A DNA stretch of 59,665 bases, from NCBI GenBank assembly GCA_964586135.1, contig CAZPGS010000002.1, positions 1 through 59,665 on the forward strand, in the 5' to 3' direction. Made by a program: the position numbers and the translations under genes. The number at the start of each line of letters is the position of its first letter. Position 1 is the first letter of the stretch. Of this stretch, positions 1,687 through 4,534 are shown in pieces. This stretch comes from an uncultured Nitrososphaerota archaeon. GTDB taxonomy: Archaea > Thermoproteota > Methanomethylicia > Nezhaarchaeales > WYZ-LMO8. The notes under the pieces were generated by a model. That model was not told where the DNA came from. It made no database searches and saw only the letters and a list, made by a program, of their open reading frames with translations.

Positions 1687-1965
1687 CTACCCCCCACCAG
1701 CCGGCGGAAATATGGAGATGGTAGAGCCGTCCCTGAGCTTAGCCCTCAACCCTCCGAGAAACATGCAATCTCTCCCGTCCACCAAGACTTTCAAATAACT
1801 CTTCAAGTCCTCTCCTTCAAAAATCAGCTCCTTGACCTCGGGCTTCTGATCGACTAGCGACTCTAGCAGTTGCCCCACAGTAGAGTCTTCAGCAAGTTCC
1901 ATCTCGATACTCTTCCAGCCCATGACATTTCTCAAAAAGCCGTAGACTTCTACCTTGACTTTCAA
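1687..1965 (-). CDS. MoaD/ThiS-family ubiquitin-like small protein (SAMP-like)
   Basis: 92 aa with beta-grasp-like sequence and a C-terminal ...SIFPPAGGG ending typical of the MoaD/ThiS/SAMP family. It is divergently transcribed from the tungstopterin-type AOR gene. Confidence 0.7.
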   Translation of the reverse strand: MKVKVEVYGFLRNVMGWKSIEMELAEDSTVGQLLESLVDQKPEVKELIFEGEDLKSYLKVLVDGRDCMFLGGLRAKLRDGSTISIFPPAGGG

Positions 1966-1995
1966 GAGGGCCCCTTCAACTATCTCCTTAAAAAC

Positions 1996-2004
1996 TTTAA
2001 AAAA
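1996..2004 (+). promoter_or_regulatory. TATA-like box upstream of the AOR::HPS gene
   Basis: TTTAAAAAA lies about 32 nt upstream of the TTG at 2036. That start gives an N-terminus (M)GGYVGRMLEVDL that aligns with AOR-family N-termini. Confidence 0.35.
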
Positions 2005-2035
2005 TTTGAGGGAGAAAAAGCCTTGGGGACCAAGG

Positions 2036-4534
2036 TTGGGCGGCTACGTCGGAAGGATGCTTGAAGTGGACTTAACGAGGGACAATGTAGCGGTCATAGA
2101 CTTAGATTGGGACGTGGCCATGAAGTTCGTGGGTGGTAGGGGCTATGCGGTAAAGCTGCTCTTCGATCTATTGAGGCCGGGTATTGATCCGTTAAGCGAG
2201 GACAACATCTTAATATTCATGACCGGGCCCCTAACCGGTACTAGGGCTCCAGCATCAGGTAGATTCGTGGTATCTTCTAAGTCACCTCTAACGAACACCG
2301 TCTTCGATTCTCACTGCGGAGGGGCTTGGGGTCCTGAGTTGAAGAGAGCCGGCTTCGATGGAGTAATAATCAAGGGGAAGAGCCCTAGACCGGTGTACTT
2401 GTTCGTGAGCCACGGCAAGGCCGAGATACGTGACGCGAGCAGAATGTGGGGCCTCGAAACGGACGCCACAACAGATGCTATTAAGAGAGATATAGGGCTT
2501 GACGACGTCAAGGTCTGTTGTATAGGTCCCGCTGGCGAAAACCGAGTAAAGTTTGCCTGCATAATAAGCGAGAGGCATAGAGCTGCTGGAAGAGGCGGCC
2601 TAGGTGCGGTAATGGGCTCCAAAAACCTGAAGGCTATAGCGGTCAAGGGCACGGGCGAGGTCACGGTCGCAAACCCCAAGGCGTTTAACGAGGAAGCCAA
2701 GAAGGCTCTGGAGGTCTTAAGGGGGAACCCGATAACAGGAGACAGCCTAGGGCGCTACGGGACGGCGTTCCTCGTGCACTTGATGAACAAAGCAGGCGTA
2801 TTGCCATCGTACAACTTCACGCGGGGCTTCTTTGAGGGGGCCGAGGACGTGTGCGGTGAGAGGATCACGGAGACCATGCTCGTGAAGAGAACGGCCTGCT
2901 ACGGCTGTCCGATAGCCTGTGCTCGCCTGATAAAGTACAAGATCGGCGAAGAAGTTGTGTCCTCTGGGCCAGAGTACGAAAGCGTATGGGCCTTAGGGCC
3001 GAATTGCGGAATATGGAATGTAAACGTCATAGTACGAGCAAACGATCTGTGCAATAAGTTGGGCTTGGACACGATTTCGATGGGTAACGTGATAGGGTTC
3101 CTCATGGAGTGCCACGAGAGGGGGCTTTTAAAAGGGCTTGGCGAGGTCGACCTAAAGCTCAATTTCGGCAACTCCGATGCGCTGTTGAAATTAATTGTGG
3201 ACACGGCCTACAAGAGGGGGCTCGGTGCGCTGGCGAGCGAGGGGGTCAGCAGAATAGCGAAGACCCTTGGCGCAGAGGACATGGCCGCTCACGTGAAGGG
3301 GCTCGAGCTACCAGCTTACGATCCGCGAGGGGCCAAGGGGATGGCACTAGCCTACGCCACCTCCAACAGGGGGGGTTGCCACTTGAGGGCTTACGTCGTG
3401 ATGAGCGAGATACTCGGAGTCCCTAGATACATAGACCCCTTATCGTATGAAGGCAAGGCCGAGCTGGTCAAGAGGCTCCAAGATGTCTCGGCGGTGATAG
3501 ACTCGCTTGTGATGTGTAAGTACACCATGTTGGCGCTTTTCTCAACGCTAGCTTACGAGCCGACGCACTACGCAAGGCTCCTGACGACGGCAACGGGCTT
3601 CTACGTCGATGAAGAAGAGTTTTACAAGGTGGGGGAGAGGATTTACAACCTCGAGAGGCTGTTCAACATCAGAGAGGGATTCGGTAGGCCTCACGACGTC
3701 CTACCCCTAAGGTTCTTGAGGGAGCCGCTAAGAGAGGGCCCTGCTAAGGGAGAGGTCGTTGACTTAACGAGACTCCTCGACGCCTACTACATGGTCAGGG
3801 GTTGGAACTACGACGGAGTACCGATGGACAAAAAGCTTCGCCAACTAGGCCTGGAGCCCTTGTACACAGGGCCTAAACTTCAAGTAGCAATAGACGAGAG
3901 GTACTTAAAGGACGGCTTGAGCATAGCAGAGGCCTGCTACAGAGGAGGGGCCGAGATCCTCGAAGTTGGGACGCCCCTCATAAAGTCCGCTGGCCTAGAG
4001 GCCGTGAGAGAGTTTAGGAGGAGGTTCCCCTACGCTACAATAGTCGCTGATTTGAAGACCTTCGATACCGGCTGGTTAGAGGTCGAATTGGCGGCCGAAT
4101 CGGGGGCCGACGTAGTGACAGTGCTGGGGGCAACCGACGACTATACGATCAAAGACGCCGTAGGCGCAGCTAGGAAGTACAATGTCAAAATAATGTGCGA
4201 CCTGATAAATGTTCCAGACCCCCTCACTAGGGCCAAAGAGGTGGAGAGGCTTGGATGCGATATAATATGCGTTCACATGGGCATAAGCGTGCAAATGAGG
4301 GAGAGAGACGTGACCAAGAAGATGGCCATGCTCAAGGAGATAGTCAAGAGCGTCAAGGTCCCTGTGGCTGTAGCGGGCGGCGTAAGGCTTGAGCACGTGG
4401 ACGACTTGGTAAGGTGCGGTTGCAAGATAATAATCGTGGGCTCGGCGATAACTAGGTCTTCCAGCCCCGAAGAGGCCACGAGAAGGTTTATAGCGACAAT
4501 ACGAGGGGCTTACGAGGGGCTCAAGAGCTCTTAG
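2036..4534 (+). CDS. Fusion protein: aldehyde/formaldehyde ferredoxin oxidoreductase (AOR family) N-terminal part plus 3-hexulose-6-phosphate synthase (HPS) C-terminal domain
   Basis: Single uninterrupted frame. The N-terminal roughly 610 aa carry AOR-family hallmarks (GGYVGRMLEVDL, FVGGRGYAVKLL, 4Fe-4S ligands in TACYGCPIAC, and the C-terminal YYMVRGWNYDGVP). From about nt 3875 the sequence KLQVAIDE...ILEVGTPLIK...VADLKTFDTG...GADVVTVLG...ICVHMGISVQ...AVAGGV...IIVGSAIT matches HPS/OMP-decarboxylase-fold HxlA-type enzymes. The longest ORF starts at 1955, but TTG 2036 (or ATG 2057) fits homologs better. Confidence 0.85.
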   Translation: MGGYVGRMLEVDLTRDNVAVIDLDWDVAMKFVGGRGYAVKLLFDLLRPGIDPLSEDNILIFMTGPLTGTRAPASGRFVVSSKSPLTNTVFDSHCGGAWGPELKRAGFDGVIIKGKSPRPVYLFVSHGKAEIRDASRMWGLETDATTDAIKRDIGLDDVKVCCIGPAGENRVKFACIISERHRAAGRGGLGAVMGSKNLKAIAVKGTGEVTVANPKAFNEEAKKALEVLRGNPITGDSLGRYGTAFLVHLMNKAGVLPSYNFTRGFFEGAEDVCGERITETMLVKRTACYGCPIACARLIKYKIGEEVVSSGPEYESVWALGPNCGIWNVNVIVRANDLCNKLGLDTISMGNVIGFLMECHERGLLKGLGEVDLKLNFGNSDALLKLIVDTAYKRGLGALASEGVSRIAKTLGAEDMAAHVKGLELPAYDPRGAKGMALAYATSNRGGCHLRAYVVMSEILGVPRYIDPLSYEGKAELVKRLQDVSAVIDSLVMCKYTMLALFSTLAYEPTHYARLLTTATGFYVDEEEFYKVGERIYNLERLFNIREGFGRPHDVLPLRFLREPLREGPAKGEVVDLTRLLDAYYMVRGWNYDGVPMDKKLRQLGLEPLYTGPKLQVAIDERYLKDGLSIAEACYRGGAEILEVGTPLIKSAGLEAVREFRRRFPYATIVADLKTFDTGWLEVELAAESGADVVTVLGATDDYTIKDAVGAARKYNVKIMCDLINVPDPLTRAKEVERLGCDIICVHMGISVQMRERDVTKKMAMLKEIVKSVKVPVAVAGGVRLEHVDDLVRCGCKIIIVGSAITRSSSPEEATRRFIATIRGAYEGLKSS

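Follow-up and report, generated by a model that had tools for sequence, protein, structure and literature searches.

A fusion of aldehyde:ferredoxin oxidoreductase with 3-hexulose-6-phosphate synthase in uncultured archaea: a candidate formaldehyde-removing enzyme of pentose synthesis

Introduction

Most archaea make pentoses by running the ribulose monophosphate (RuMP) pathway in reverse, with one formaldehyde released for every ribulose-5-phosphate (Ru5P) that is formed. To our knowledge, the fate of this formaldehyde is understood only where formaldehyde-activating enzyme (Fae) and tetrahydromethanopterin (H4MPT) exist. Fusion proteins that join HPS (3-hexulose-6-phosphate synthase) to Fae or to the isomerase PHI reportedly operate in the formaldehyde-releasing direction for archaeal pentose synthesis. 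A 59,665-nucleotide stretch of DNA from an uncultured Nitrososphaerota archaeon (order Nezhaarchaeales, WYZ-LMO8; contig CAZPGS010000002.1 of assembly GCA_964586135.1), here called the window, contains a gene in which HPS is joined instead, in frame, to an aldehyde:ferredoxin oxidoreductase (AOR). This locus raises the question of whether AOR-HPS is a genuine enzyme and, if so, whether its AOR half disposes of the formaldehyde that its HPS half would release. An initial annotation, made from the sequence and its list of open reading frames (ORFs), had proposed such a coupling. The results reported here show this fusion to be genuine, ancient and widely distributed among uncultured archaea, and comparative genomics makes formaldehyde removal its probable, although far from certain, function.

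Results and Discussion

Both halves of the fusion are complete

The open frame occupies positions 1955 to 4534 on the plus strand and has 859 codons when counted from its first TTG (ORF listing). Translation likely begins at the TTG at 2036, giving a protein of 832 aa, because GGYVGRMLEVDL, the N-terminus read from this codon, aligns with the region of residues 2-13 of the Pyrococcus furiosus AOR (1AOR) and because the homologues of AOR-HPS are 831-834 aa in length. Inspection of the junction DNA revealed no stop codon, frameshift or homopolymer run, and the single uninterrupted ORF described initially is borne out by the ORF listing and by ~70 homologous clusters. The motifs quoted in that description are all present, GGRG at residues 33-36, CYGCPIAC at residues 288-295 (nt 2897-2920) and KLQVAIDE from nt 3875, followed within the HPS half by EVGTPLIK, ADLKTFD, ICVHMG, AGGV and VGSAIT.

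The N-terminal half exceeds the Pfam gathering scores for both AFOR_N (273 bits; cut-off 29.8) and AFOR_C (480 bits; cut-off 27). Compared with solved enzymes, it scores 570 bits with 9mqx, 540 with 1AOR, 522 with 9g7j, 359 with the P. furiosus formaldehyde:ferredoxin oxidoreductase (FOR, 1B25) and 248 with WOR5. By these alignments it is AOR-type and lies outside the FOR clade, and a FOR-type identity was rejected. The label 'aldehyde/formaldehyde' oxidoreductase given initially is correct in designating a complete AOR-family enzyme; it does not hold as a FOR-type assignment, as AOR proper is closest. FOR belongs to the same superfamily and catalyzes the reaction proposed for the fusion, the ferredoxin-linked oxidation of formaldehyde to formate, but is the more distant relative. 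Over its whole length, the N-terminal 610-residue part can be aligned with P. furiosus AOR and the related solved AORs 9mqx, 9g7j and 8c0z (540-570 bits), and the four Fe-S cysteines, the Glu313 and His448 of P. furiosus AOR, and the pterin motifs are all retained. The [4Fe-4S] ligands C288, C291, C295 and C494 align with the cysteines of 1AOR and are invariant in 65 full-length fusions, as are E313, H449 (Glu313 and His448 in P. furiosus AOR numbering), the pterin-motif residues D345 and D489, and G33, G34, R35 and G36 of the GGRG motif. The first pterin-binding motif, N-K-L-G-L-D-T, is the same in 9mqx. The solved AORs stand alone at ~605 aa, whereas the fusion adds HPS at the C-terminus, a 6-residue insertion and a few clade-specific residues. 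Fused and unfused AORs are distinguished by five positions and this one short insertion; the clade-specific residues include K252, E508, T517 and T518, and the insertion, F502-S-T-L-x-x, located directly after the fourth Fe-S cysteine, is common to the fused AOR clade and missing in 51 of 70 unfused AORs.

The C-terminal barrel matches the Pfam OMPdecase/HUMPS family (114 bits) and, narrowly, the NCBIfam HPS model TIGR03128 RuMP_HxlA (203.7 bits; cut-off 200), with only 67-84 bits for UlaD/KGPDC and 23-39 bits for PyrF. The same order is seen with solved structures, 212 bits and ~60% identity with the archaeal HPS 9lj9, 123 bits with 3ajx and ~60 bits with KGPDC. The residues tested were the E of ExGTP, the D-x-K-x-x-D motif, the catalytic His and the phosphate-binding GG and G-x-A; E643, D672, K674, D677, H747 and G781-G782 match their counterparts in 3ajx and 9lj9 and are invariant in the 65 fusions. 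The C-terminal half is thus predicted from its sequence to be a complete HPS, as first annotated, and identity as KGPDC or as the orotidine 5′-phosphate (OMP) decarboxylase PyrF was rejected.

The fusion is widespread in uncultured archaea

When the junction and HPS region were used as a query, ~70 full-length clusters (90% identity) were recovered that have AFOR_N, AFOR_C and OMPdecase in one protein of 803-841 aa. By identity, these come from Nezhaarchaeales (83-94%), Methanomethylicaceae (~66-69%) and Thermoplasmata (~50%), with further sources in Thermoprotei, Hodarchaeota/Hodarchaeales, Heimdallarchaeota, Thorarchaeota and Promethearchaeota. A scan of GTDB contigs for junction-spanning loci identified at least eight, adding Methanosuratincola sp., Bathyarchaeia, Hadarchaeia and a metagenome-assembled genome labelled Nanohalarchaeota. 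The class to which the window belongs was surveyed in 62 species genomes from nine families (f1 to f9), of which f1 is the window's own family and f1-f3 constitute its order. A junction-spanning query was matched end to end, in an ORF of ~836-900 aa, in 42 of the 62 genomes; all 10 genomes of f1, all four of f2, the single f8 genome (a divergent protein, 41% identity) and 27 of the 32 f9 genomes have the fusion, and this query did not find it in f3-f7. In an exhaustive HMMER search of 1.84 billion representatives clustered at 50% identity, four fused representatives were among the top 150, and the remainder are unfused AORs of ~600 aa with at most 50% identity. AOR-HPS is, on this sequence evidence, a compact family and no recurrent accident. 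The clean junction DNA, the equal linker in ~70 clusters and the presence of the fusion in 42 of 62 class genomes reject a sequencing error or hidden stop codon near 3860. The architecture is genuine and, rather than a local oddity, widespread and ancient.

Variants of the family were also found. In a Methanomethylicaceae genome, at G034:C10:26478-27587 (minus strand), the AOR-HPS gene is interrupted by a single in-frame TAG, which could be a sequencing error, the mark of a pseudogene or a read-through codon in a pyrrolysine-using lineage. Outside the window, proteins of ~1000 aa (P0037-P0040, P0105) consist of AOR, a truncated and degenerate HPS copy of ~184 aa, and then a full HPS. D-x-K-x-x-D survives in the degenerate copy, but its catalytic His and phosphate-binding end are gone, and the arrangement looks, from sequence, as though the HPS module had been duplicated in tandem within the fusion. 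An AOR-HPS-PHI triple fusion was considered for these variants and rejected, as the extra segment is this second HPS copy.

The two halves have a shared history

In 63 of 71 fusions the junction has exactly the same spacing, with ~3 residues (TGP) separating the last AOR helix from HPS strand 1. In a tree with unfused AORs, every fused AOR half falls into a single clade (SH-aLRT 93), whose sole 'unfused' member is a fragment truncated at its C-terminus. The main set of HPS halves likewise groups in one clade (96), with sub-clades that match those of the AOR halves. A divergent pair, P0112 and the f8 protein from G015, sits on a long branch apart from these in the HPS tree, and a topology that unites every fused HPS half in one clade is not rejected by the AU test (p = 0.18). 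One origin of the fusion is the simplest reading of these trees, short of proof. With conserved cofactor and catalytic residues and congruent trees, both halves look functional and co-evolved. An AlphaFold2 monomer model built from a 61-sequence alignment (mean pLDDT 93, pTM 0.92, junction pLDDT ~94) predicts one rigid two-module body.

Genome context favours the formaldehyde-releasing direction

The genome search proposed in the initial annotation located PHI as a separate gene on contig C27 of the same assembly (TIGR03127, 184 bits; cut-off 160). Across the class, 57 of the 62 genomes encode PHI, among them all 35 of high quality, and in each case it has a gene of its own. The window's own assembly, which is 85% complete, gives no OMPdecase-family match other than the fused HPS. 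It is also the only HPS in G056 and in G058 (95% complete, 2 contigs), near-complete congeners in which the other OMPdecase-family gene is PyrF. Transketolase_N is absent across the order (f1-f3), including genomes that are 94-98% complete, in a search for which Methanocaldococcus jannaschii and Sulfolobus acidocaldarius served as positive controls. In the class survey it is also absent from several sister families (f5-f8), and it is present in f4 and in ~60% of f9. With no transketolase in the order, the RuMP assimilation cycle cannot close, and Ru5P would therefore have to come from fructose-6-phosphate (F6P) via PHI and reverse HPS. The formaldehyde-releasing direction of the fused HPS is thus favoured by gene content in the window's order, and the initial suggestion that HPS and PHI run in reverse to make Ru5P gains comparative support from the missing transketolase and from the sole HPS of G058 and G056. 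As a separate observation, the families without transketolase apparently lack the non-oxidative pentose phosphate pathway, a point that bears on their source of erythrose-4-phosphate for aromatic amino acids.

Many close relatives (G048-G051, G053-G055 and G059-G061) encode another HPS that has an RraA/aldolase-like domain as its fusion partner (NF005442, 664 bits), for example at G060:C1:626709-627314 (L021 532-1836, minus strand). This gene is missing from the window's own assembly and from the near-complete G056 and G058, and among genomes of the genus it tends to accompany a lack of mcrA. A link between AOR-HPS and methanogenesis was rejected, as mcrA is absent from f2 and from most of the genus.

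AOR and Fae alternate as partners of HPS

Fae-HPS is present, and AOR-HPS absent, in families f3, f4 and f7, and the reverse is true of f1, f2, f8 and f9. Within the class, the HPS partner of these fusions is thus Fae or AOR, never both. No Fae of any kind is found in 34 of the 42 AOR-HPS carriers, and a closed Heimdallarchaeote chromosome that has the fusion also has no Fae. Acting on formaldehyde is the one property that the two partners would have in common, and among the comparative arguments for removal by the AOR half of formaldehyde made by HPS, this alternation is the strongest.

Fae was not found in the window's own, 85% complete assembly, which also lacks tandem PurP-family genes and PyrF, all of which are present in congeners. 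As Fae and PurP are ~8 kb apart in four congeners (G056, G058, G059 and G060; for example G058:C1:1078310-1087927), a single missing region may account for both of these absences, and the lack of Fae probably reflects incompleteness of the assembly. With free Fae in all six congeners, AOR-HPS is therefore no simple replacement for Fae in this lineage, and the argument that AOR replaces Fae as the genome has none is weakened accordingly.

A proposed bifunctional enzyme of the reverse RuMP pathway

The preferred reading of these data, which we judge to be probable on sequence and comparative grounds, is a bifunctional reverse-RuMP enzyme in which HPS releases formaldehyde and AOR oxidises it to formate with reduction of ferredoxin. 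The separate PHI would convert F6P to D-arabino-3-hexulose-6-phosphate, which the C-terminal HPS domain would cleave to Ru5P and formaldehyde. Held rigidly by the 3-residue linker, the AOR-type tungstopterin/[4Fe-4S] module would oxidise the formaldehyde to formate on the spot, and the two electrons would pass through its [4Fe-4S] cluster to ferredoxin. Free formaldehyde would thereby be kept low, the unfavourable lyase reaction pulled forward and low-potential reducing power recovered. The formate might then be used by the formate-dependent purine enzymes of the PurP family in carriers; PurP-family genes are present in 57 of the 62 class genomes. The formate/formaldehyde couple has a potential of ~-450 to -650 mV (quoted in PMC7143981), and with so negative a couple formaldehyde oxidation with ferredoxin should therefore be favourable and pull the lyase reaction. 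In this scheme we infer which way flux runs, that AOR acts on formaldehyde, that the intermediate is channelled, that ferredoxin is the partner and what becomes of the formate. The coupling for formaldehyde removal proposed in the initial annotation has comparative support from the partner swap with Fae, the fused HPS as sole HPS and the lack of transketolase.

Several observations weigh against this reading. The AOR half falls in the broad-substrate AOR clade and outside the FOR clade, so that formaldehyde as its substrate would be indicated by context, with no support from subfamily membership. Free Fae, a second formaldehyde sink, is encoded in 8 of the 10 genomes of f1, including all six congeners. 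Many carriers have a second HPS, either RraA-like or free, some f9 carriers possess transketolase, and the assembly from which the window comes is only 85% complete.

The fusion might secure only co-expression, stoichiometry or a shared oligomer, with a broad-substrate AOR for which formaldehyde is incidental and is not channelled. The AOR-type rather than FOR-type affiliation, the free Fae in f1 carriers and the few differences, just five positions and one short insertion, that set fused apart from unfused AORs all speak for this explanation. It accounts poorly for a linker of fixed length throughout the history of the family, for halves that have co-evolved and are confidently predicted to pack rigidly, and for the exchange of the partner with Fae, a formaldehyde-specific enzyme. 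General aldehyde oxidation could, moreover, already be served by the 2-4 unfused AOR paralogues present per genome, and we consider this explanation unlikely.

Flux might alternatively run in the opposite direction, with reduced ferredoxin driving AOR to reduce formate to enzyme-bound formaldehyde that HPS then condenses with Ru5P, as an entry point for formate assimilation or detoxification. In other organisms, acids are reduced in vivo by members of the AOR family. Each half-reaction could in principle run either way, a rigid fusion would limit the escape of formaldehyde, and many carriers are H2-using methanogens with low-potential ferredoxin. The exergonic HPS condensation could also pull formate reduction (E0′ ~-450 to -650 mV, PMC7143981). 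In an order without transketolase, however, Ru5P could not be regenerated from F6P by other means and pentoses need the reverse reaction. G058 and G056 have no HPS other than the fused one, and the alternation with Fae-HPS matches the known formaldehyde-disposal role of the latter. Net flux toward assimilation is, for these reasons, quite unlikely.

More speculatively still, the protein might be a channelling one-carbon (C1) module that is physiologically reversible. During pentose synthesis it would oxidise nascent formaldehyde and charge ferredoxin; with highly reduced ferredoxin it would support an ATP-free assimilation from formate through formaldehyde to sugar phosphate, a step that we know of only as a synthetic design. 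Where there is no H4MPT or tetrahydrofolate (H4F) C1 branch, as in Methanomethylicaceae and many Asgard archaea, it may also be dedicated to supplying the formate that provides C2 and C8 of purines. We hold this extended role to be doubtful.

That the C-terminal barrel is some other aldolase or decarboxylase of the OMPdecase suprafamily, feeding a different aldehyde to AOR, is very unlikely. The TIGR03128 score, which barely exceeds its cut-off, speaks for this, but the identity to 9lj9 is high and the KGPDC and PyrF matches are far weaker, the HPS catalytic set is invariant in the fusions, the fused domain nests among HPS sequences in the tree, and it is the sole HPS candidate in genomes that all keep PHI. 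An assembly or sequencing artefact joining two adjacent genes can be dismissed, given that the fusion recurs with an equal linker in ~70 independent clusters and 42 genomes, with closed chromosomes among them.

Gene organisation and neighbouring genes

The features of the locus are listed in Table 1. The divergently transcribed neighbour of AOR-HPS, initially annotated as MoaD/SAMP-like, is confirmed as such by NF041918 SAMP1 (66.7 bits; cut-off 60), ThiS (47 bits) and TIGR01687 (63 bits) and has a C-terminal GGG. The two genes are separated by 70 bp (1966-2035), and CTTTAAAAAATTT is located symmetrically within this region, ~31 nt from the start codon of the MoaD-like gene and ~31 nt from that of AOR-HPS, which suggests a shared bidirectional promoter core with very short leaders. 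At the other end, AOR-HPS (plus strand) and pyrG (minus strand) are convergent and their 3′-ends overlap by 14 nt (window 4521-4534).

Table 1. Features of the AOR-HPS locus, with positions numbered from the first nucleotide of the window
Feature	Position	Strand	Description
MoaD/SAMP1-like ubiquitin-fold protein	1687..1965	-	92 aa, C-terminal GGG; divergent from AOR-HPS
A/T-rich BRE/TATA-like box CTTTAAAAAATTT	1995..2007	.	Read directly from the sequence; candidate shared promoter core
AOR-HPS fusion gene	2036..4534	+	832 codons + stop, likely TTG start (1AOR alignment, homologue lengths, promoter-like box upstream)
AFOR_N domain	2051..2653	+	Residues ~6-206; GGRG at 33-36; PF02730, 273 bits
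AFOR_C domains 2 and 3	2696..3853	+	PF01314, 480-483 bits; C288, C291, C295, C494, E313, H449, D345, D489, insertion F502-S-T-L-x-x
Junction	3854..3874	+	End of AOR C-terminal helix (..LGLEPLY) and 3-residue linker TGP, then HPS strand 1
3-Hexulose-6-phosphate synthase domain (predicted)	3875..4531	+	Residues 614-832; E643, D672, K674, D677, H747, G781-G782; TIGR03128

A ThiS/MoaD-family gene adjoins the fusion not only in the window but also in Methanomethylicaceae-like contigs, Methanosuratincola and a Heimdallarchaeote, where it is co-directional with the fusion and overlaps its stop codon. The window's own genome has three ThiS/MoaD-like paralogues. The encoded protein is probably a sulfur carrier for tungstopterin synthesis, and its gene is best read, from its sequence and position, as the usual tungstopterin-synthesis accessory of AOR genes. 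A partner specific to the fusion was rejected, as many unfused AOR genes of archaea and bacteria have the same neighbour, among them those of Methanocellales, Hadarchaeum, Thermofilum, Dehalococcoidia and Clostridia. In the Heimdallarchaeote (CP070695.1; L023 10451-11922), the ThiS/MoaD-like gene downstream of the fusion is followed by genes for a 389-aa SIS-domain protein, phosphofructokinase and glycogen phosphorylase, which is, by annotation, a sugar-phosphate neighbourhood.

Comparison with known HPS fusions

Curated NCBIfam models exist for Fae-HPS, HPS-PHI and HPS-RraA, and no NCBIfam model spans both halves of AOR-HPS. The window's protein matches the existing fusion models below cut-off and over the HPS part only (NF009833, 154.7 vs 274; NF041755, 206.3 vs 500; NF005442, 245 vs 593). 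Database entries for the fusions have generic names such as 'aldehyde ferredoxin oxidoreductase', '3-hexulose-6-phosphate synthase' or 'orotidine 5′-phosphate decarboxylase'. No description of an AOR-HPS fusion was found in open-access papers and preprints (subscription-only literature was outside this search), in agreement with the initial annotation, which knew of none. AOR is thus a new partner among the known bifunctional HPS fusions, and the fusion is apparently uncharacterised.

Fae-HPS (NF009833/PRK13307), found in methanogens and other H4MPT-using archaea, is similar to AOR-HPS in having HPS and a formaldehyde-consuming enzyme in one polypeptide. Its presumed role is to make Ru5P through the reverse RuMP pathway, and in the sister families f3, f4 and f7 it is present exactly where AOR-HPS is absent. 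Its N-terminal Fae, in a protein of ~400 aa, condenses formaldehyde with H4MPT and involves no redox chemistry, whereas the 610-aa tungstopterin/[4Fe-4S] partner in AOR-HPS would oxidise formaldehyde to formate, reduce ferredoxin and not require H4MPT. The HPS-PHI of Thermococcales (NF041755 RuMP_HxlAB; 9lj9) has an HPS domain ~60% identical to that of AOR-HPS and the same role in pentose synthesis. In that fusion, however, the C-terminal partner is the next enzyme of the pathway and the fate of formaldehyde is left open, whereas in AOR-HPS carriers PHI is separate and the fused partner would act on the by-product. The HPS-RraA-like fusion (NF005442, 'bifunctional hexulose-6-phosphate synthase/ribonuclease regulator') has an HPS clade near the fused one, with a C-terminal RraA/aldolase-like domain in place of an N-terminal AOR.

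Enzymes that are not fused have been placed in related schemes. A separate AFOR is described as oxidising formaldehyde alongside the RuMP pathway in Brockarchaeota (PMC8065059), FOR-family AORs are possible formaldehyde detoxifiers in Atabeyarchaeia and Freyarchaeia (PMC11291895), and a route from formate through formaldehyde to RuMP via NAD-linked enzymes has been proposed for Desulfurococcus (PMC7143981).

Implications

Methanosuratincola, which carries the fusion, is a genus with cultured members, and the proposed function is thus amenable to testing at the bench. If correct, AOR-HPS would offer a naturally occurring template, of interest for synthetic C1 assimilation, in which formaldehyde and formate are interconverted with ferredoxin beside an enzyme that forms C-C bonds, and it would provide a physiological substrate for one clade of the poorly understood AOR family. 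It would also offer a testable answer to the question of where the formaldehyde of pentose synthesis goes in Methanomethylicaceae, in part of Nezhaarchaeales, in Hodarchaeales/Heimdall and other Asgard lineages, and in some Thermoplasmata.

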